A program made the position numbers and the translations under genes. 64,000 nucleotides of DNA from positions 61 to 64,060 of the forward strand of contig CAMZEN010000007.1 of the NCBI GenBank assembly GCA_947305775.1. Direction: 5' to 3'. The notes beneath the pieces are model-generated. The model searched no databases. It was not told where the DNA came from and worked only from the letters and a program-made list of their open reading frames with translations. Source of the DNA: an uncultured Verrucomicrobiota bacterium. Its GTDB lineage: Bacteria > Verrucomicrobiota > Kiritimatiellia > RFP12 > UBA1067. This document shows, in pieces, positions 10,710 through 59,399 of the stretch (position 1 is its first letter; every line of letters begins with the position of its first letter).

Positions 10710-12203
10710 ATGCGACTCCTATCCCAACGGCTTCTTCTGATCCTCCTTCTATGCCTTGCCGCGCCGGCGTTCGCGGCGAAGCCAAAGGCCATCGTGCTCT
10801 TCTATGCCGACGATCTCGGTTATGGCGACACATCCGCATATGGCCAGGCGAAGGTGCCGACGCCAAACCTCGAGCGCCTCGCGAGCGAAGGATGCCGCTT
10901 CTGCGACGCGCATTCGGCGACGCCGATCTGCACGCCATCGCGCTTTTCGCTGCTTACCGGACGCTACGCCTTTCGCAGACCTGGAACCCGCATACTCGAC
11001 GGCGATGCAAAGCTGATCCTGCCGGTGGAGGGCTCGGGCGAAGAGAATGTTACGCTGCCCGTCCTCATGAAACGCGCCGGATACCGCACCGCCGCAATCG
11101 GCAAGTGGCACCTCGGGCTCGGCAAGGGCGACGCCCCGATCGACTGGAACGGCACCATAAAGCCCTCGCCGCGCGAGGTCGGTTTCGACAAGTCGTTCGT
11201 GATGGCCGCGACCGCAGACCGCGTCCCCTGCGTATTCGTCGAGGACGGCGCCGTGGTCGGACTTGATCCGAATGATCCGATAGAGGTTTCGTATGACAAC
11301 GCGGAGCGCAAGTGGCCGGACGAGCTCACTGCGCATTCCAACCCCGAGCTTCTTAAGGAATGGGGGCGCCCTTCCGACCGCCAGCACGACAAGACGATAA
11401 TCGACGGCATCTCACGCATCGGCCACATGCGTGGAGGCAAGTCGGCCATATGGAAGGACCAGGATATCGCCGACCGCATAACCGCAGAAGCCGAGGCGTT
11501 CATAAAGGAATCATCAGGAAAGCCCATATTCCTCTACTTCGCGACAAACGACATACATGTGCCGCGCGACCCGTCGCCGCGCTTCAGAGGCGTCAGCAAG
11601 CTCGGCATACGCGGCGACGCGACAGTGCAGATGGACGATTGCCTAGGACGGATCCGCAAGGCGCTTGCGGAAAACGGATACAACGACACCCTCTTCATAT
11701 TCACGAGCGACAACGGTCCCAAGGTGTCCGACGGCTACGAGGATGGCGCACGCGACGACTGGGCGGACGAAAACCCCGCCGCGCCCTTCCGTGGCGGCAA
11801 GTATACGGTCTACGAAGGCGGAACCAGAATGCCCATGATCGTCGCGTGGCCCGGACGCGTCAAGCCGGGGACGGAGAACCATGCATTGATCTCACAAACG
11901 GACTTCGCGCGTTCGCTTGCCAAGATAGTGGATGTCGAGGTTCCGGCAGGAGCCTGCAGCGACAGCCAGGAACTCTCATATGTCCTTCTAGGCGACAGCG
12001 AGAAAGGCAGGGAAAGCCTCGTTGAGCAACCGGCGTGGGGCGCATGGGGCTACAGGAAAGGCGCATGGAAGCTGATAGACTCCGCCGAGCCTCAACTTTA
12101 CTTCCTCGACGACGACCCTGGTGAGCGAAACAACCTCGCCAAAGAGCAGCCCGCAAAGGTGGCCGAACTGCGCGCCGAACTCCGGGCGCTGACCGCCCAA
12201 TAG
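10710..12203 (+). CDS. arylsulfatase (formylglycine-dependent sulfatase family)
   Basis: Signal peptide is present. The sulfatase signature (…LFYADDLGYGDTSAYG…ATPICTPSRFSLLTGRY…) contains the C-x-P-x-R formylglycine motif. 497 aa. Confidence 0.9.
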   Translation: MRLLSQRLLLILLLCLAAPAFAAKPKAIVLFYADDLGYGDTSAYGQAKVPTPNLERLASEGCRFCDAHSATPICTPSRFSLLTGRYAFRRPGTRILDGDAKLILPVEGSGEENVTLPVLMKRAGYRTAAIGKWHLGLGKGDAPIDWNGTIKPSPREVGFDKSFVMAATADRVPCVFVEDGAVVGLDPNDPIEVSYDNAERKWPDELTAHSNPELLKEWGRPSDRQHDKTIIDGISRIGHMRGGKSAIWKDQDIADRITAEAEAFIKESSGKPIFLYFATNDIHVPRDPSPRFRGVSKLGIRGDATVQMDDCLGRIRKALAENGYNDTLFIFTSDNGPKVSDGYEDGARDDWADENPAAPFRGGKYTVYEGGTRMPMIVAWPGRVKPGTENHALISQTDFARSLAKIVDVEVPAGACSDSQELSYVLLGDSEKGRESLVEQPAWGAWGYRKGAWKLIDSAEPQLYFLDDDPGERNNLAKEQPAKVAELRAELRALTAQ

Positions 12204-36331: not shown

Positions 36332-38056
36332 TCAGGTGCGCACTATGTTCACGTCTACGGACGCATCGGGGTTGAACATCCTCGGATCGACCGACAGCCC
36401 ACGTCCGGCAAGTCTGTCGAAGAACGTCGGCATCGCGCCTGTTGGCTTGAACTCGCCGATTATCTTGCCGTGATTGCCCACGCCGATCTGCTTGAACGCA
36501 AAGAGGTCCTGCATGACAATCTGGTTGCCCTCAAGTCCAGTCACCTCAGAAATCGCAACGACCTTGCGGGAGCCGTCCGACAAGCGTGACTCGTGGATGA
36601 TTATGTCAACGGCGCTGGAGATCTGTTCGCGTATGGCGCGCGATGGCAGCTCCATCCCACTCATTAGAACCATCGTCTCAAGGCGCGATATGACATCACG
36701 CGGTGAGTTTGCATGGACTGTCGTAAGTGAACCGTCATGACCTGTGTTCATCGCCTGCAGCATGTCAAGCGCTTCACCGCCACGGCATTCACCGACGATT
36801 ATGCGGTCTGGCCGCATTCTGAGGCAGTTCTTTACAAGATCACGAATCGTCACGGCACCCTTGCCCTCAATGTTCGGCGGCCGCGCCTCCAGACGTATTA
36901 CATGCGGCTGCTGAAGCCTGAGTTCGGCGGCATCCTCGACGGACACTATGCGCTCAGTTGCCGGGATGTATCCCGAAAGCAGGTTCAACAGCGTAGTCTT
37001 GCCCGATCCCGTTCCCCCTGAGACGACAATATTCTTACGCAAAAGTACGCAAAGCTTCATGAACTCGGCCATGTTGTGCGACCATGTGCCGAAGCGAATG
37101 AAATCATCCGGCGAAAGGGCCTTCTTGGCGAATTTCCTTATCGTGATCGTCGGGCCAGAAAGCGACAGCGGCGCAATGATGGCGTTTACGCGCGAACCAT
37201 CAGAAAGGCGCGCATCGACGTATGGCTGAGACTCGTCGATCCGTCGGCCGAGCGGCGATACAATGCGCTCTATGACGGCAAGCACGCTCGCGTCATCCGT
37301 AAACTGGCAGTCTGAAAGCTCAAGCCGTCCATTACGCTCAACATACACCTTGGACGGCCCGTTCACCATGATTTCGCTCACAGTGTCGTCGTCCAGAAGC
37401 TCCTCCAACGGGCCAAGCCTCATGGCTTCGTTGAAAACGTCGTACTCCAACCGGACAGGATCGATCCCGGCAGGAAGAAGCCCATTCGCCACGACCTCAT
37501 CGATGATCTGGCGTATCTTCTCCTGCGCACGCTCCTCAAGGCCCTCTCGGTCGACGCCCTGCACCGTCAACCGTTTCATGTCCATGCGCTTCAGCAATTC
37601 GCGCTGTATCTGCTCCTGCACGCTACGCCTAAGTTCTCGCATGGGATCCGGCGCTGGTCCAGACTCATCGGCATTATCCGCGCTTGAAGAAGCAACGCCC
37701 TGCCCGTCAAAGGCTGATGGTTCCTCTTCATTCTGGGCAGGCTGGGCCACCGACATGTCGGCTGCCGCGCCAGCATCTTCGCTTACGCGCAGCATGCAAG
37801 AGCCGATCTGGACTATCATGCCGCCAGTAAGCCTTACCATGCCGTCTATTGGTTCGCCATTGACGAAAGTGCCGTTGGACGAATGAAGATCCTCTATCGC
37901 GGCCTCTCCGTCGCGCACTGTGAGCATGGCATGCCGTTCGGAAACATCCTGGAACGGAAAGCATATGCGGCATGAACTGCCGCGCCCTATCATGTAGCTG
38001 CCGTCGGCAAGCTCTCGCGTCTCGCGCCGTCCCTCGACGAGAGTCGTAAGCGTCAT
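36332..38056 (-). CDS. CpaF/TadA-type secretion ATPase with N-terminal FHA domain
   Basis: N-terminal FHA fold (…[15 protein letters not shown]…[29 protein letters not shown]). C-terminal VirB11/CpaF ATPase with Walker A ([15 protein letters not shown]) and Walker B. Confidence 0.85.
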
Positions 38057-52299: not shown

Positions 52300-52815
52300 A
52301 AAGCGGGGACAGTCCCCGCACTCACCCAAACCTTTGCGACCTTCGCGAACTTCGCGTGAGTCCACACCCGCCCCAAAAAGCGGGGACAGTCCCTTGATTC
52401 GCGCGGCACACTTATTGCAATAAGTGTTCCAAGACTTCATTGTTCTGCCCGCTATTCTGCGGGTACGGATGCCAACTGAAGCCGAAAAGATGAATTTCTA
52501 TGCAATAAACCTGCCAGATACCTTCGTATCATCCAGTCCGACCTTTGTATCATCCAGTACCGACTCTGTATCATCCAGTAGGGACCTTTGTATCTTTGTG
52601 ATACACAAACAGAGAAACAAAACAGATAACAAAACAGATTTTAACAGAGAACCAATTGCCCTGGATAAAGTTGTTGAATCCATGTAGAGACTGTCCCCCC
52701 CCCCCCAAAAAAAAAAGCGGGGACAGTCCCCGCACTCACCCAAAACCTTTGCGACCTTCGCGAAGTTCGCGTGAGCTCCCACCCCCGCAAAAAGCGGGGA
52801 CAGGCACCGCAAGTT
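52300..52815 (+). repeat. composite repeat element, copy A (REP-like hairpins plus iteron core)
   Basis: Near-identical to 58860-59365. Contains four AAAAGCGGGGACAG(TCCCCGC) hairpin units. 18-bp palindrome CACTTATTGCAATAAGTG (52409-52426). Three GTATCATCCAGT iterons at 21-bp spacing (52526-52579). Inverted pair TGTATC…GATACA. C12A10 tract (52695-52716) enclosed by GACTGTCCCC/GGGGACAGTC. Confidence 0.75.
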
Positions 52816-52944
52816 CTGTGATGTCCAGAAGCTAATGCAAGATTCTCTTGCGTTTAGTTCTGAACACGACACGATCAAGCGCGGGGAGCCCCGCCTTATA
52901 ATGCCTAGCCGGTGCGGAGATGCACAGTGGTTTTGAAAACAAAA

Positions 52945-54894
52945 CTACTCGCCGAACTTGACCTTGAAGAACTGCGAGGGTGCCGCCTCGGGAGCGGCGA
53001 CCTCGAGAGTCATCTTGACCGCGCTCTTCTTCTCTTTGACAGTCACGCCGCCTGCCATCGGCGCAGCATCTTCAAGCTCGGACAGGGATCCGGCGCGGTA
53101 AACCTTGACGACATCCTCATCGACCGCCACGCCGGAAGCGTCGTTCTCGATTTCCGCAAAGATTGTGATCGTGCACTTGTCGTTCTCGACCTGCGCGAAC
53201 TTAACTACTTCCGACGCGCCGCCTGTTCCGAATGCCGGCTCGGCCACCGCGCCCGTCACCGCGACACCGTTGATTGTCACGCGAATCCCCCCTGGGATGG
53301 ACACCGCATGTGAGGTCGCGCCCTCGATGACATCGCCATCCGCTGCCGTCCAATCGGACTCAAGAAGCGAAAGGTCAGCAATCTTGCTGAATGTCGCAGT
53401 GTAAGTCGTGTTGCTCACAGCCGGTTCAATCGCAGGCGTCCAGCCAGTAAACACCCAGCGGTAAGGTGCGTCAGCCCCACCTTTCGTCGCTGCAGCGTGT
53501 GCAGGCACCGCATTGCTGGGAACGATTGTCGTCTCGATCTCCGTACCGTCTTCGTTGAGCCATGTGATATCGAACTTGTATTCCGGCTCAAAAATAAGCG
53601 TTTTCCCATCCTCGCTTTCGTACCGTATCACATTTTCGGAAATGTTTTGAGCAGCACCAACATAGACAGTAGTTTTACCGTGAATTTCGACCCTACTTAT
53701 CGTTGACTCGACCGTCAGAGTGCCGCACCAGATTGTGCCAGGATTATATAAACTAGTACCGCTAGCGACGACGGTAACCTCACCACCCTTGAACGTGACA
53801 GAAGTCGTGTAAATAGCGAAATACGAAGATGTCTCGATCTCAACAACACCACCTTCAAATACGATGCTGCTTTCAACAGAGGAATCTCTTCGACCAATTA
53901 CACCGTTGTTTACAAGTCTGCCGGTGCTCCCCTTTATCGTCAGAGTCGGTGCTGTTCCATTTACGCGAATGGCATAGTATGTAACATTTGACACTACATT
54001 CACCGTTTCGTCGGCAAGAATTATGGTGGCACTGCCGCTGCAGTCGATTGCGGGGGCATCACCTCCTTCGGGAATCGAAATCGTCGCATCCGACAAGGTT
54101 ATGGTCGCACCATCAGGAATTATAATACCGTATGACGTGGAGCCTGTCAGCACATCGCCGTTATGGACCGTGTATGTTCCGGTCAGTTCCGACAAATCGA
54201 CCGTTGTGCCGGTCGTGCCCGGATCGTCGCCTGGATCATCGCCCGGGTCTTCACCAGGATCTTCCGCCATCTTCGCCTGAGTGATGGTGACGGTTTTCCC
54301 GGCTATGTATATTGTAGCCTGGCGGGCGTCGCCAGTGTTCGCCGCGACAGTGAAGTTAACGCTTCCAGGGCCGCTTCCGCTGTTAGCCGAGAAGGTTATC
54401 CAATTGCAGGACATATAATTCTCCACAGCGTAGGTGCTTCCCCACGAAACGCCGGAATCGACCGAAACGGTCAGCGTGCCGCTTCCGCCAGATGCTTCGA
54501 ATGATGTCTTGCTGCATGATACTATTGCACTTTTGCCGGATTGTGTAATATCGCAGGCTGCGTTCCAGACGGACGTGGAACCTTGGAGCCTGAAATACAC
54601 ATGCAAAAGTCGCTCATTTACAGAGGTGCTTTTCGATACTGTCACCGTCACCGAATCGCCTATACTGATGTATTGCTTGTTGACAGAAACGCTCGAATCG
54701 GATGTAAACACATAAAGTTCAGTTGATGATGGCCATTCACCCGTGCTGGTGTATTCGCTGGTTATGGAAAAGGTGCCGCCGTTGGCCGAGACGGTTCTTG
54801 TCTTTGGCGATATTGTCCAGCCAGCAAACGATTGCAGAGCGGAGAAGACCGCCAACGAAAGACAGGCAAGTGTTGCCAGAGTCTTGTTCTTCAT
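52945..54894 (-). CDS. large secreted beta-rich (Ig-like/BACON-like) protein
   Basis: Signal peptide MKNKTLATLACLSLAVFSALQSFA. Thr/Ser/Val-rich repeated beta-strand segments. Acidic (GEDPGDDPGDDPG) linker. 649 aa. Confidence 0.5.
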   Translation of the reverse strand: MKNKTLATLACLSLAVFSALQSFAGWTISPKTRTVSANGGTFSITSEYTSTGEWPSSTELYVFTSDSSVSVNKQYISIGDSVTVTVSKSTSVNERLLHVYFRLQGSTSVWNAACDITQSGKSAIVSCSKTSFEASGGSGTLTVSVDSGVSWGSTYAVENYMSCNWITFSANSGSGPGSVNFTVAANTGDARQATIYIAGKTVTITQAKMAEDPGEDPGDDPGDDPGTTGTTVDLSELTGTYTVHNGDVLTGSTSYGIIIPDGATITLSDATISIPEGGDAPAIDCSGSATIILADETVNVVSNVTYYAIRVNGTAPTLTIKGSTGRLVNNGVIGRRDSSVESSIVFEGGVVEIETSSYFAIYTTSVTFKGGEVTVVASGTSLYNPGTIWCGTLTVESTISRVEIHGKTTVYVGAAQNISENVIRYESEDGKTLIFEPEYKFDITWLNEDGTEIETTIVPSNAVPAHAAATKGGADAPYRWVFTGWTPAIEPAVSNTTYTATFSKIADLSLLESDWTAADGDVIEGATSHAVSIPGGIRVTINGVAVTGAVAEPAFGTGGASEVVKFAQVENDKCTITIFAEIENDASGVAVDEDVVKVYRAGSLSELEDAAPMAGGVTVKEKKSAVKMTLEVAAPEAAPSQFFKVKFGE

Positions 54895-55066
54895 GTCTGT
54901 TACCCTTATACGCTTGTTCCGTTCGGCTGTTTGCCGCAGGGGTTGAACGGAAGAAGTCCCCGCGACACGTTCTGCTGAGACGGCTGGCATGACCACATCC
55001 AGACAACCAGTCGCCATACTTACATACGCATGGCGCAGGGAAAAATTATGCGGCGAGGGGAAAAAA

Positions 55067-55663
55067 CTATTCGCCGTAAGCCGACTCGACGGCGGCGATC
55101 ATGCGATCGATGCGGTGCTTTATCTGGCGAAGCGCGTTGATCTTGAGATCATGTGCGGCGGCGACCTCTTCCGCAGGGCGGCAGTCGAGTGCGTAGGCGC
55201 GATATGCCGCGACAGTGCGCGGGTCCAGCATCGTCCGCGAAAGCACATGCTCAACCGCCGCCGCATGACGCGCCGCGCGAAGGCGTACATCGACAATGGT
55301 GGCAGCGTCCATCACACCGGACTCGACCTCCAGCCCATCAATCGGCACCGTGCGCCCTTCTCCTCGCGCGGCGGCGCGTCTGTGCATATCTACGAGAAGC
55401 CGCCGCACCATCGAGTAAAGATAGCTCCTGAAGCGACCCTTCTTGCGTTTGTAGCCGCCGCCACGCAACACGTCCACAAGCCGGATCATTACTTCCTGCA
55501 CCACATCGTCGGCGTTGCTCCCATTGACGCCGCCCAGCTCATCTGCGTATCGCCTTATCACCGGCGTGTACAGCTCTGCAAAGCGCTCCCATTCCGCAGA
55601 GTCGTCGCCGTCGGCAAACTCGGATATCTTCCGCAAAAGCGTCTGAGGAGTGTCTGGCGTCAT
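55067..55663 (-). CDS. RNA polymerase sigma-70 factor, ECF subfamily
   Basis: Region-2-like DDVVQEVMIRLV…YLYSMVRRLLVDMHRR. C-terminal region-4 HTH (…HDLKINALRQIKHRIDRM). Overlaps the downstream kinase gene by 4 bp. Confidence 0.65.
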   Translation of the reverse strand: MTPDTPQTLLRKISEFADGDDSAEWERFAELYTPVIRRYADELGGVNGSNADDVVQEVMIRLVDVLRGGGYKRKKGRFRSYLYSMVRRLLVDMHRRAAARGEGRTVPIDGLEVESGVMDAATIVDVRLRAARHAAAVEHVLSRTMLDPRTVAAYRAYALDCRPAEEVAAAHDLKINALRQIKHRIDRMIAAVESAYGE

Positions 55664-57342
55664 TGTCTCTCCATGGCGAGGTCCGGCCCGATGCAGATCC
55701 GGAACAATGCATGTATCCCTTCAGGCTTGCATATCCAGCGCGCATCGTGCGCCTGACGGATAAGGCATTTGGTTCCGCCGCGCAGCGGATCGATCTCTTC
55801 TGCGGCGTACGCAAGGTCGTCGGACGAATTCACGCGGTCGAGCACGACCTGCTCGCTGTCGGTCCAGCCACATGAAATGCCCCACCCGTTGAACGCCTTG
55901 TGCGGAAGCAGGCGGATGTCGTCGCGATAAGCGACACCAGACACGTTCGTCGCTGCCTCTGCAAGGTTCCTTGTCGCACCCGCGTCCCAATACACGTCTT
56001 CGAACGCAAGCGGCCATTTGCCGCCTTCAAGAAGCGCATATTCAAGTTCCGCCTCGGTCGGAAGGCGAAAGACGTAGCCCTCGGGAAGAATGTGGCCGTA
56101 GGTGCGGTTCAGGCACCGGCAGAATTCCTCGCCTTCTGGATACCACAACCTGTATACGACATCATATTCCGGGAAGGCGGCTTCGAATGCGGCTGACGCC
56201 ATGTCGCGCTTCCGGTTGGCCTTGATTGTGCGGCACTGCCGCGCGGCAACCGGCATCGCGCCAATCCAGAACGGGCGCGTTATCGTCACCTTGTGGTCAG
56301 GCTTGTTGTTCGGCCATTGCCCGCTGGACATCATGAACGATCCTGCCGGGCACGCGCAGAAGACCATTTCGCCGCCGCCATCCAAGGCGAGCGACTTTAC
56401 GCGCGGCGTATGGAACGTTGGCGGAAGAGCCCATTCGCCTTCAGTATCGAATCGAGACAGCGACTCTGACCCGTTCGCCGGCGGATCATTTAATCGGAAC
56501 ATCACCAGACCCGCAACAACAGCAAACGCTGCAGATACCGTCAAAGCCGCCGCGATGCGCCGTCCGCGGGATGGTCGATGACCGGCCACTCCCAAGAGCT
56601 GAGGTATCGACCGACGCCAGAAATCGCCAAACGGGGCAAGCATTCCACCTACATCCACCCCCGGTTCGTACCACATGCCGGTAAGCAGCCTGAAAAACAT
56701 GACGCCTAGCGCATACCTGTCGGATTCAGGCGTCGCGGGCGCGCCGGCGCGGACCGCCGGAGAAAGGTAGAAGTATGTTCCCATCACGGGGCGCGTTCCC
56801 GTAGATTCGCCCTCAACGAACGTTGTGGTAACTTCGAGTGCGTCCTTAAGCTCTTCGCCGAAGATGCGCGAGACGCCAAAGTCGGAAAGGTGCGCATGAC
56901 CGTCGGCGTCTATGAGAACATTCTCCAGCTTGACGTCGCGATGCACCACACCGCGCCGCGCAAGGTAGGCAAGGACGCCGGAAATTTCCGCAAACCAGCG
57001 GCGGGCGTCCGCATCCGATACGGCGCCCCGCTTGCGCAAATCCTCAAGCGTAGTGGCCTCGCCATCGCGGCCAAGCACGAGATCCATCGTGAAGAACGGC
57101 TCCCCGCCGGACTCGTCCTCTCCGGCGTCGTATACTCCAACGAGGTGCGGATGGGCCAGGTGCGACAGCAACCGTGCTTCTGCACAAAAACGCTTCTTCA
57201 GAAAATCCCCGTTCTTCTTCGTCACCGAAAAGAGCTTAAGAGCAAAGCGTCGACCATTCTGGGACTCGACCTCGTATACGCGCCCCATTCCGCCTCGTCC
57301 AATGAAGCGGACGATGCGATACCTTCCTATATGACCGTCCAC
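55660..57342 (-). CDS. Ser/Thr protein kinase fused to a C-terminal FGE-sulfatase (SUMF1-like) domain
   Basis: Hanks kinase motifs (GRGGMGRVYEV, ALKLF, HRDVKLENVLID, DFGVSR). A transmembrane segment (AAALTVSAAFAVVAGLVMF). FGE-family domain (…FWIGAMPV…YRLPTEAELEYALLEGG…). Confidence 0.75.
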   Translation of the reverse strand: MDGHIGRYRIVRFIGRGGMGRVYEVESQNGRRFALKLFSVTKKNGDFLKKRFCAEARLLSHLAHPHLVGVYDAGEDESGGEPFFTMDLVLGRDGEATTLEDLRKRGAVSDADARRWFAEISGVLAYLARRGVVHRDVKLENVLIDADGHAHLSDFGVSRIFGEELKDALEVTTTFVEGESTGTRPVMGTYFYLSPAVRAGAPATPESDRYALGVMFFRLLTGMWYEPGVDVGGMLAPFGDFWRRSIPQLLGVAGHRPSRGRRIAAALTVSAAFAVVAGLVMFRLNDPPANGSESLSRFDTEGEWALPPTFHTPRVKSLALDGGGEMVFCACPAGSFMMSSGQWPNNKPDHKVTITRPFWIGAMPVAARQCRTIKANRKRDMASAAFEAAFPEYDVVYRLWYPEGEEFCRCLNRTYGHILPEGYVFRLPTEAELEYALLEGGKWPLAFEDVYWDAGATRNLAEAATNVSGVAYRDDIRLLPHKAFNGWGISCGWTDSEQVVLDRVNSSDDLAYAAEEIDPLRGGTKCLIRQAHDARWICKPEGIHALFRICIGPDLAMERQ

Positions 57343-57354
57343 GATTGACAGGTA

Positions 57355-57870
57355 TTATAGCATATCAAGCGGGAACGAACAACGGAGGAGCGGCAGAAAT
57401 GGTAAGATTTCATGCAGCCGCTTTATGTATGCTTCAGTCAAGGCGGACGTGGCGGTCATGATTATCTTATCGACTGCGCGGAAATGGTTCGCCGTCTCGA
57501 CAATATCGTCAACAGGCACGTCCGCGCCAAACTCACCTATCGTCTTCGTCTCGAAGATCCATCGTGTCTGTTCGTGCGTAAGGCGACTTCCCTCGATGTG
57601 GTTCGAGTTGTAGGTGATGTCAATTTGAAGGCGATGGTAAAGTCCGCCTGAGATGCGTGAACTTCGCTCCGCCTCCAGAACGCCGAGAACGGTTGTGGGG
57701 AATGTCCGGCGGCGCTTGCGCTCAGGCTTGGCGGCATTAGCCGGTATTCGCCATTCTCCTTGATCTAATATAGCCCCTGCTATGCGGTTGTCGGCGCAAT
57801 ACGAGCGTACCTGACGGGGTGTTATTCCCCATTTTGCGGCAATCTCTTCTATAGTCATAAAATCCATCAA
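57355..57870 (-). CDS. HTH domain plus Fic N-terminal fragment (3'-truncated Fic-family ORF)
   Basis: N-terminal MerR/excisionase-like HTH (TIEEIAAKWGITPRQVRSYC). Then the Fic N-region motif YNSNHIEGSRLTHEQTRWIFE. Ends before any HPFx(D/E)GNGR motif. Confidence 0.5.
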   Translation of the reverse strand: MMDFMTIEEIAAKWGITPRQVRSYCADNRIAGAILDQGEWRIPANAAKPERKRRRTFPTTVLGVLEAERSSRISGGLYHRLQIDITYNSNHIEGSRLTHEQTRWIFETKTIGEFGADVPVDDIVETANHFRAVDKIIMTATSALTEAYIKRLHEILPFLPLLRCSFPLDML

Positions 57871-58273: not shown

Positions 58274-58855
58274 TCATTTGATGTAACCTTTGCGCTTGTC
58301 CGCCACAACCTCCCAATGTCCACCTTTGTCAGGGCCGACGCGGCGGATGAGGTTGGCGTCTTTCAGCTTGCGGATGTTCCATCTCACGCCGTCAACTGAA
58401 AGCCCAGTAGCGTTCGCCAGCTCTGCCAAAGTGACATCCGGCATCGACTTCATGACCGACATTATTTTCTCGGTAGTTTTCTTGTCAGTCTTTGCGGCGG
58501 CAATCTCGTATGCCTTGCCCTTGGCCTTGAGCGTCCGCAGAATCTTGTCGAGCATGAAATCGATGAACGGCCCGCACTCGCCGGCGGCGGTTGAGGCGCG
58601 GATTGCCTGGTAGTATTCCTGCTGGTGCGCCCAGACGATGTTCTCGACGGGCGCACCGTAGAACTCGTTGCGCCAGGAGCCGAGAAGCGCGGTCTGCCAG
58701 AGCCGCCCGGTGCGTCCGTTGCCGTCCGGGAACGGATGGATGAACTCGAACTCGTAGTGGAACACGCAGCTCTTGATCAGCACGGGGTCTTCGCTGTCCG
58801 CAAGCCATGCGAAGAGGTCTTTCACGAGCGAGGGAACGTTAATCAAGCGCGGGGA
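58274..58855 (-). pseudogene. Fic family protein, 5'-truncated at the boundary of repeat copy B
   Basis: Contains the Fic catalytic motif HPFPDGNGRTGR and a C-terminal winged-helix (…LAELANATGLSVDGVRWNIRKLKDANLIRRVG…). The expected ~80 N-terminal Fic residues are replaced by repeat sequence upstream of ~58855. Confidence 0.5.
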
Positions 58856-58859
58856 CCCA

Positions 58860-59365
58860 AAATTGAGAGCGCGAAAAGCGGGGACAGGCCCCATGTGCGT
58901 TGCGCGTGAGCCCACACCCGCCCCCAAAAGCGGGGACAAGTCCCCTGATTCGCGCAGCACACTTATTGCAATAAGTGTTCCAAGACTTCATTGTTCTGCC
59001 CGCTATTCTGCGGGTACGGATGCCAACTGAAGCCGAAAAGATGAATTTCTATGCAATAAACCTGCCAGATACCTTCGTATCATCCAGTCCGACCTTTGTA
59101 TCATCCAGTACCGACTCTGTATCATCCAGTAGGGACCTTTGTATCTTTGTGATACACAAACAGAGAAACAAAACAGATAACAAAACAGATTTTAACAGAG
59201 AACCAATTGCCCTGGATAAAGTTGTTGAATCCATGTAGAGACTGTCCCCCCCCCCCCAAAAAAAAAGCGGGGACAGTCCCCGCACTCACCCAAAACCATT
59301 GCGACCTTCGCGAACTTCGCGTGAGCCCACACCCGCCGCAAAAGCGGGGACAGGCACCGCAAGTT
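58860..59365 (+). repeat. composite repeat element, copy B
   Basis: Direct repeat of 52300-52815. Same hairpins, 18-bp palindrome (58959-58976), three iterons (59077-59130) and a C12A9 tract (59246-59266). The left-most hairpin unit is diverged. Confidence 0.75.
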
Positions 59366-59399
59366 CTCACCAACCCAGCCAACCCTTTCTTTAGGTTCG

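Follow-up and report, generated by a model that had tools for sequence, protein, structure and literature searches.

A 64,000-nucleotide stretch of DNA from an uncultured Verrucomicrobiota bacterium (GTDB lineage Bacteria; Verrucomicrobiota; Kiritimatiellia; RFP12; UBA1067), corresponding to positions 61 to 64,060 of contig CAMZEN010000007.1 (GenBank assembly GCA_947305775.1) and referred to here as the window, encodes on its minus strand a transmembrane Hanks-type Ser/Thr kinase, an extracytoplasmic function (ECF) sigma factor and, behind a promoter-like motif, a secreted protein with BACON-like repeats. It is probable, though far from certain, that these make up a three-part signalling cassette of rumen and gut Kiritimatiellae, in which the sensor kinase acts on the sigma factor and the sigma factor on the downstream promoter. 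The cassette adds a member to an already recognised class, the kinase-partnered ECF sigma factors; it is of the type that keeps the acidic motif of region 2.2, and its sigma/kinase family is probably a new group within that class. An earlier reading of the window, made from the sequence only, had described an ECF sigma factor whose partner is a transmembrane Ser/Thr kinase and not an anti-sigma factor, and had placed it in a class established in Planctomycetes- and Verrucomicrobia-like bacteria. This description was upheld by the domain matches and the conserved pairing reported below, the bacterium belonging to the Planctomycetes-Verrucomicrobia-Chlamydiae (PVC) group.

The genes follow one another on the minus strand in the order kinase, sigma factor and a large open reading frame (ORF) ending at 52945 (Table 1). 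The sigma gene was correctly said in the sequence-only reading to overlap the kinase gene by 4 bp (an ATGA shared by the kinase stop and the sigma start); it should be added that the kinase is the upstream gene. The sequence GGAGAG lies 5 nt upstream of the sigma ATG. Independent public contigs carry a 100% identical copy of the kinase and copies of the sigma factor that are 98-99% identical, which rules out an artefact of assembly. In the public annotation the kinase begins 18 amino acids later, within the glycine loop; the GTG start is supported by the alignment of homologues. When the kinase, the sigma factor and the downstream protein were searched against the window by tblastn, no paralogues were recovered, only the genes themselves.

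Table 1. Features of the kinase-sigma cassette and of the related leader RNA. Positions are those of the window unless a locus number (L) is given.
Feature	Position	Strand	Basis and remarks
Hanks-type Ser/Thr kinase gene, transmembrane	55660..57342	-	ORF listing; 560 aa, GTG start, 'VDGHIGRYRIVRFIGRGGMG'
ECF-type sigma factor gene	55067..55663	-	ORF listing; 198 aa, ATG start
ATGA overlap, kinase stop TGA / sigma start ATG	55660..55663	-	Sequence; caATGAcg
Cytoplasmic kinase domain, ~aa 8-255	56578..57321	-	Pfam and family alignment; Thr-rich activation loop TTTFVEGESTGTRPVMGTYFY
Single transmembrane helix, ~aa 262-284	56491..56559	-	IAAALTVSAAFAVVAGLVMF; hydropathy peak 2.33
Extracytoplasmic FGE-sulfatase-fold domain, ~aa 315-555, non-catalytic	55678..56400	-	Fold model, Foldseek, cysteine conservation
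Extended -10-like element TGCTATAAT	57354..57362	-	12-20 nt upstream of the kinase GTG
ECF-type promoter motif GCATAAT-N15-(T)GCGTAT	55024..55051	-	16 nt after the sigma stop; points at the BACON-like gene
Box GGCGACTGGTTG at the predicted 5' end of the ECF-driven transcript	55004..55015	-	In relatives, reverse complement of the RNA core GGCAUACCAGUCGCC
Degenerate leader-RNA remnant	54930..55021	-	Covariance model R1, 13.7 bits, E 0.028; alignment to 3' parts of intact copies
Predicted target gene: secreted protein with BACON-like N-terminal repeats	52945..54894	-	649 aa; signal peptide MKNKTLATLACLSLAVFSALQSFA
Two intrinsic terminators closing the transcription unit	52733-52717, 52319-52303	-	GCGGGGACTGTCCCCGC + T run
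Leader RNA copies in relatives	L004:8735-8907, L008:4953-5099, L013:6754-6901, L017:847-1018, L019:6837-7005		35 further in L026-L101

The kinase was matched by the Pfam Pkinase model over residues 8-222 (E 8e-34) and carries the full set of Hanks-type features, namely the glycine loop (GRGGMG, 15-20), the VAIK lysine (K36), the alpha-C glutamate (E55), HRD (134-136) with its Asn (N141) and DFG (154-156), all of which are invariant across 49 homologues. PknA, StkP and PknB are the best solved relatives of the kinase domain. In the structure model of the full-length protein (mean pLDDT 86) the transmembrane segment is covered by one long helix at residues 259-283. More than 100 clusters of homologues combine Pkinase with an FGE-sulfatase domain, the fold of formylglycine-generating enzyme (FGE).

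The sigma factor scored 52.6 bits with the NCBIfam model TIGR02937 (sigma70-ECF, cut-off 42.9) over residues 24-186 and was matched by Pfam Sigma70_r2 at E 2e-10. None of the Pfam region 4 models reached E 0.1 on it, but the TIGR02937 match does span region 4; at 198 amino acids, with sigma2 and sigma4 only, the protein has the size of an ECF (group 4) sigma factor. PF07638 gave no match at E < 0.1, no solved relatives were found in the PDB (phmmer, E up to 0.01), and from NCBIfam only the superfamily model was returned, for the window sigma as for its planctomycete relatives. The family is tight: its members are all about 198 amino acids long and about 65% identical, with a mean column identity of 73%. 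The named homologues all come from metagenome-assembled genomes (MAGs) of Kiritimatiellae, some deposited as Lentisphaerae or Verrucomicrobia, from the rumen or gut of goat, sheep and cattle. The family is small as well: of 1.84 billion cluster representatives, 41 matched with E no higher than 1e-30 and 1221 with E no higher than 1e-10, and these proteins, which lack genomic context, served to assess motif conservation only. From a database clustered at 90%, a profile built from the sigma alignment recovered nothing beyond the same close family. Region 2.2 of the window sigma reads N50-A-D-D-V-V-Q-E, in a family where (D/E)(A/V)DDxVQ(D/E) occurs in 21 of 21 members, and it is acidic in most of about 100 remote representatives. 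The N-terminus reads M-T-P-D-T-P-Q-T-L-L. Conserved hydroxyl residues are T5 and T8 in this N-terminal 'PDTPxTLL' and T144 and T150 in region 4.1; by alignment these four are candidate phosphosites only.

The pairing of the two genes is conserved. A kinase lies immediately upstream of the sigma gene, on the same strand, in every Kiritimatiellae or 'Verrucomicrobia' MAG locus with enough sequence (L002-L020), over sigma identities from 75% down to about 35-41% (L019, L020 and metagenome contigs), and the pairing holds too in metagenome contigs that were found independently through the RNA core described below. The two genes overlap by 4 nt in nine other loci and are separated by 12-88 nt in the remainder. 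The nearest relatives outside the clade are planctomycete sigma factors, which also adjoin Hanks kinases; they differ in being 28-29% identical and in the gene order, sigma then kinase. In one of them, from Roseimaritima sediminicola, the kinase (L021:6605-8614) has an N-terminal extension of about 110 amino acids with HVEQCESCQRRL, an HxxxCxxC zinc anti-sigma-like motif that is absent from the window kinase. By its sequence this protein suggests an anti-sigma-kinase fusion; zf-HC2 was not called by Pfam on the extension.

No ORF with anti-sigma features was found beside the kinase-sigma pair in the ORF listing or with Pfam and NCBIfam, and the cassette thus does not have the co-encoded anti-sigma factor of ECF sigmas. 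Such a cognate factor is typical of 114 of 157 ECF groups and is not obligatory. The sole candidate with a compatible topology, a 690-amino-acid ORF from the ATG at 55017 with 41 cytoplasmic residues before a hydrophobic helix, was rejected as an over-extension because the 41 codons, which orthologues do not have, overlap a block conserved at the nucleotide level, with neither an ATG nor a frame conserved across loci, and because the alignment of orthologues begins at the signal peptide MKNKTL (start 54894). The corrected annotation of this downstream ORF leaves no candidate, so that the absence of an anti-sigma factor, as first read from the sequence, stands.

In groups ECF43, 59-62, 217, 267 and 283 a kinase is conserved beside the sigma factor and an anti-sigma factor is usually missing (PMC7826278). 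In ECF43, which includes EcfP/PknT of Vibrio parahaemolyticus and EcfK/PknS of Xanthomonas citri, the sigma factor stands, as in the cassette, beside a transmembrane Hanks kinase with a variable extracytoplasmic sensor domain and no anti-sigma factor (PMC8999054, PMC13147305). ECF43 sigma factors are inactive by default, since region 2.2 is devoid of the acidic DAED/DxxD motif, and are activated by phosphorylation of Thr (QTTA/STTA); EcfK has a second phosphorylation site in the linker (PMC8999054, PMC13147305). The window sigma differs in that NADD (DADD in the family) stands in place of the phosphorylatable region 2.2 Thr, and because the acidic motif is kept the protein is not a member of ECF43 and the ECF43 mechanism is not simply transferable to it. 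Closer in this respect are ECF59, ECF61, ECF62 and ECF217 (Planctomycetes), ECF283 and ECF267, which like the cassette are kinase-linked, without an anti-sigma factor and with a DAED-like motif (PMC7826278, PMC8999054); these other kinase-linked groups are mechanistically uncharacterised (PMC8999054).

The promoter-like motif that follows the sigma gene is unique in the window (0.06 occurrences expected), and the same bipartite motif, with position and spacing fixed, is present in eight orthologous loci, the flanks of which diverge. A -10 element containing CGT is typical of ECF promoters. With a relaxed pattern one further match was obtained in the window, at 1693-1717, and it was treated as chance because 3.3 were expected. 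The -35 variants of the motif (GCrTAAy or TGTCAy) sort with different sequences of the recognition helix in sigma region 4.2. From the position of the motif, its conservation and this co-variation we infer that the promoter is used by this sigma factor. Upstream of the kinase, TGCTATAAT is a candidate housekeeping promoter of the kinase-sigma operon, and elements of the form TGnTAnnnT also stand upstream of the orthologous kinases, in place of an ECF-type motif; this suggests a constitutive operon, post-translational control and the downstream gene as output.

The predicted target, the 649-amino-acid secreted protein, resembles a protein of L006, where the sigma gene is followed by a gene for a BACON/Laminin_G_3 protein: the two N-termini can be aligned from the signal peptide onwards (BLASTP E 3e-17). 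Pfam gave no match for the window protein itself.

The proposed chain of events would run as follows. The lectin-like, non-enzymatic FGE-fold domain that the single-pass kinase places outside the cytoplasmic membrane would sense a ligand or a partner. Kinase and sigma factor would be co-transcribed, probably constitutively from the housekeeping-type extended -10 promoter, and translationally coupled. The stimulated kinase would activate the sigma factor post-translationally, most likely by direct phosphorylation, as the conserved gene pairing and the ECF43 precedent suggest; a phosphosite at the ECF43 threonine of region 2.2 is excluded, since the window sigma has kept its acidic motif. The active sigma factor would take RNA polymerase to GCATAAT-N15-GCGTAT and so bring about expression of the secreted BACON-like surface protein. 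In relatives the same promoter heads a composite module, made up of ECF promoter, box, sigma70-type promoter and leader RNA with terminator, before one or several different target genes.

A number of points weigh against this chain. With its acidic region 2.2 intact, the sigma factor could bind core RNA polymerase unmodified; no Ser or Thr is conserved in the sigma2-sigma4 linker of the family alignment; and the N-terminal motif with T5 and T8, which is conserved in remote relatives too, may be a helix cap. No ECF-type motif was found within 400 nt upstream of the orthologous kinases, and the usual ECF autoregulation is therefore absent. The correlation between the -35 element and region 4.2 tracks clade boundaries and may reflect shared descent. 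The copy in the window may be rearranged or partly decayed, given its repeats, truncated Fic genes and deleted leader RNA. Phosphorylation, the stimulus, promoter use and the role of the RNA are moreover inferred throughout.

Some of these points would also fit a kinase that restrains the sigma factor. The kinase domain or the juxtamembrane segment might tether the sigma factor at the membrane in the manner of an anti-sigma factor and release it on autophosphorylation or ligand binding, without phosphorylating it. With the acidic motif intact and a linker devoid of conserved Ser/Thr the sigma factor would need restraint, not activation, tight translational coupling would favour a 1:1 complex, and the extended planctomycete kinase of L021 suggests that sequestration and kinase functions can be combined. 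We regard tethering as unlikely, if still deserving of attention, since the window kinase has no N-terminal extension (its glycine loop begins as early as residue 15), its core is separated from the membrane helix by a mere 40 residues or so, Pfam and NCBIfam revealed no anti-sigma domain, and the invariance of the catalytic residues across the family argues that phosphotransfer matters.

It is less probable again that kinase and sigma factor are co-transcribed and yet independent, the kinase having other substrates and the sigma factor being controlled by its own synthesis. In favour of independence, no phosphosite can be nominated with confidence, and some ECF groups are regulated purely transcriptionally (PMC8999054). 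Adjacency, order and strand are, however, kept over sigma identities from 75% to about 35% and through swaps of the kinase ectodomain, the planctomycete relatives are likewise kinase-linked, and the operon is not preceded by an ECF-type promoter, so that nothing points to control of the sigma factor at the level of transcription.

In L004, L008, L010, L013, L016, L017 and L019 the promoter is followed by a second conserved non-coding block, a structured leader RNA of about 150-200 nt with the invariant core GGCAUACCAGUCGCCUC. In these first seven sequences a closing helix of 14 bp (14-16 bp) is 100% paired, with three covarying pairs. Metagenomes were then scanned for the invariant 17-mer core; many chance matches were obtained in soil, lake and marine contigs, and only those confirmed by a covariance model were kept, giving 42 copies. 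Over the 42 copies the closing helix is 99.5% paired, with 5 covarying pairs and 69 doubly changed cells, against 22-49% pairing in slid controls, and it was recovered de novo by RNAalifold. Nearly every copy also has a stem of 12-17 bp followed by a U-run, clade-specific in sequence, and a loop of about 45 nt that holds the invariant core; the model-guided alignment recovers the closing helix only, the terminator stem being demonstrated sequence by sequence. None of the 4227 Rfam covariance models reached its gathering score in the window or in L004, L013, L017 and L019, and none matched the copy of L017 at E up to 1.

Although the RNA was retrieved independently of the protein, a sigma homologue lies 90-260 nt upstream, on the same strand, in about 25 of the roughly 33 copies with enough upstream sequence. 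Some contigs have two copies, each 40-90 nt before a different gene, and the genes that follow encode an 866-amino-acid FGE-domain protein, an AAA ATPase with a helix-turn-helix (HTH) domain, a pair of dynamin-like GTPases and giant BACON/LamG proteins. An ECF-type promoter, (GCrTAAy or TGTCAy)-N13-18-GCGTwT, stands upstream of 34 of 39 copies, among them second copies without an adjacent sigma gene, and an extended -10 element lies directly before the RNA in 35 of 39. About 10 nt beyond the promoter motif a conserved box, GGCGrCTGGTTGTC, is found, and in relatives the invariant core has its reverse complement in the 14-16 nt after the ECF -10. The energy of the box-core duplex averages -21.9 kcal/mol, as compared with -10.9 for random 35-mers, and 7 of 680 controls were equally good.

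The box pattern has a single match in the window (Table 1). Here the leader is a remnant. Besides the box it retains a core that is mutated (CATGCCAGCCGTCTC) and, of the terminator, the 3' arm (ACGTGTCGCGGGGAC+TTCTTCC); the 5' arm is missing, as are the 5' strand and the sigma70-type promoter. It folds no better than its shuffles (z = 0.38). As judged from the alignment, this amounts to an internal deletion, as a result of which about 130 nt separate the ECF promoter and the start codon.

One hypothesis is that transcripts of the leader from the two promoters would fold differently, because the ECF transcript begins with the box complementary to the core. It is conceivable, albeit doubtful, that a modular regulon is governed by the kinase-sigma pair as its master switch, and that the choice between the ECF and the housekeeping promoter sets which of two mutually exclusive folds the RNA adopts and hence read-through into the gene. 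On the same tentative terms, each target gene would be preceded by a composite element not described before, consisting of the ECF promoter with the box, a housekeeping promoter about 100 nt downstream and the structured leader with the core in its terminator loop; the window would hold a derivative of it in which a deletion has brought the ECF promoter almost up to the gene.

The arrangement of box and core also admits an explanation at the level of DNA, in which the motif after the sigma gene is not the promoter of the sigma factor but the outer arm of a recombination or invertible-promoter element. Box and core form inverted repeats of 14-16 nt that enclose a TTGAcc/TGnTAtAAT promoter before genes for surface or variable proteins, the module is multi-copy in some contigs, and the deletion in the window falls exactly between box and core. 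Such an element is very unlikely in view of the orientation of the copies, which relative to the downstream gene and the upstream sigma gene is the same in 42 of 42, and of the RNA-type compensatory changes in the closing helix and terminator stem; no recombinase gene was seen beside the copies, and the inverted repeat does not include the GCGTAT and -35 blocks, whose spacing is constant and like that of a promoter.

The extracytoplasmic part of the kinase, on which sensing by the proposed cassette would depend, has the fold of FGE-sulfatase proteins. Pfam matched FGE-sulfatase to kinase residues 331-441 (E 7.6e-8), covering the profile partially. The AlphaFold model of the ectodomain alone (pLDDT 92, pTM 0.91) gave significant Foldseek scores in the PDB for proteins of the FGE-sulfatase fold only, ranked PvdO (5hha), Treponema TvpA (2y3c), Streptomyces coelicolor FGE (2q17), PorK and OvoA, at 14-17% identity; the Foldseek probability was 1.0 for 2q17 and 6muj, with a TM score of about 0.5. 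With a profile of the ectodomain family, PorK/GldK were matched best (E 2e-8), true FGEs weakly (about 1e-4) and TvpA as well, all matches being confined to the RLPTEAEWEYA...GLYDM core. PvdO, TvpA and PorK/GldK (type IX secretion) share with the ectodomain this core and the absence of the FGE cysteine pair; they differ in that none is fused to a kinase.

FGE/SUMF1 enzymes have two catalytic copper-binding cysteines, in a CxxxxC arrangement about 24-29 residues before a C-terminal GFRC (C336, C341 and C365 in human SUMF1), and FGE activity requires O2 and copper. The profile match to true FGEs covers the central core and stops short of the catalytic segment, and for this reason the test of the cysteines rests on their conservation in the family and their spacing. 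Among the 49 homologues only C331 ('CACPAG') and C550 ('FRICIGP') are invariant in the ectodomain. No CxxxxC pair precedes the terminal 'FRxC' motif in the family alignment, where the consensus at the region of the FGE cysteines is R-x-G-x-L-x-L-S-R-Q-x-x-x-Q-R-W-L-M; C526 and C538 of the window protein are present in 2 of 49 homologues, 12 apart and not as CxxxxC. The kinases of the window, L004, L019 and L020 have an FGE-like ectodomain, those of L002, L006 and others an LRR_5 one, so that the FGE-like domain is one of several sensor modules and not a defining trait. From the missing cysteine pair, the anoxic habitat set against an O2-requiring FGE and the interchange with LRR_5, we conclude that the ectodomain is a binding or sensor module and not an enzyme. 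The ectodomain had been taken for FGE-like without being a true FGE, and checking the catalytic cysteines agreed with this view.

A working FGE that matures sulfatases such as the one at 10710-12203, with the kinase reporting its activity, can be suggested from the Pfam match, the fold and the presence of a Cys-type sulfatase in the same window, but is scarcely credible given the cysteines described above, the non-FGE identity of the closest structures (PvdO, TvpA, PorK), the equal pairing of the same sigma family with LRR_5 ectodomains, the 43 kb that separate the sulfatase and the need of FGE for O2 and copper in an anoxic rumen. The sulfatase is itself genuine and of the formylglycine type, as had been claimed (PF00884, E 1.6e-48; CTPSR at residue 74); the connection to the cassette that had been implied found no support, since purL, PEPCK, formate-tetrahydrofolate ligase (FTHFS), alpha-2-macroglobulin and secretion genes lie in between.

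Kinases fused to an FGE-sulfatase (formerly DUF323) domain are known in the 'Proteo1' family, which shares the Pkinase-transmembrane-FGE architecture of the window kinase (bioRxiv 10.1101/2025.01.12.632604); in that survey they are not connected to sigma factors. The window kinase family is set apart by a short core (about 250 amino acids), by pairing always with an ECF sigma factor and by an ectodomain that is exchangeable with LRR_5. Genes 3' of the leader RNA (L052:5369-7969; L027, L066, L083, L087, L090 and L097) often encode FGE-sulfatase-fold domains too, with 25-41% identity to the kinase ectodomain. By sequence, sensor domain and some predicted target proteins may thus share a fold and perhaps a ligand. 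In L072 an FGE-like protein and the kinase are separate adjacent genes.

The surroundings of the cassette show signs of rearrangement. A direct repeat of 465 bp (97% identity, 52353-52826 and 58903-59367) brackets Fic fragments, kinase, sigma factor and the BACON-like gene. It carries perfect terminator hairpins, GCGGGGACAGTCCCCGC, found nowhere else in the window, three iteron-like repeats of 21-22 bp (TTYGTATCATCCAGT...) and a TGTATC...GATACA palindrome, and has no counterpart in the related loci compared. The Fic fragments are two truncated genes of the Fic family, arranged in tandem on the minus strand. The first (58274-58960) begins inside the repeat and keeps the HPFxDGNGR core and a winged HTH, its N-terminus being missing; the second (57355-57870) comprises an N-terminal HTH_17 and the N-terminal half of Fic, and its end, 12 nt short of the kinase start, falls inside the putative promoter of the kinase. 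The whole segment sits between rfbC and a glycosyltransferase gene, and synteny beyond the cassette is not kept in relatives. These surroundings are consistent with a rearrangement-prone surface-structure locus. Elsewhere in the window a T2SSE type II/IV secretion ATPase (36332-38056, minus strand) has an N-terminal FHA domain, a reader of phospho-threonine, and Ser/Thr kinase signalling in this genome may have a further client in it.

Among kinase-partnered ECF sigma factors a mechanism is known for ECF43 only, and the groups with an acidic motif are without a known phosphosite, stimulus or regulon. The Kiritimatiellae family offers an unusually complete and testable system, with a compact kinase, exchangeable sensors, a conserved sigma factor and a sharply defined candidate promoter; the candidate targets are large BACON, LamG or FGE-like surface proteins, dynamin-like GTPases and ATPases. 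New here are the candidate target promoter and a covarying leader RNA, absent from Rfam and tied to sigma genes, in degraders of complex glycans of the gut and rumen. If the promoter-choice proposal were true, the leader would represent a new class of sigma-factor-coupled riboregulator without an Rfam counterpart. If the chain from kinase through sigma factor to promoter is true, it would reveal how kinase-linked ECF sigma factors other than ECF43 work, and would provide orthogonal sigma/promoter parts for synthetic circuits.

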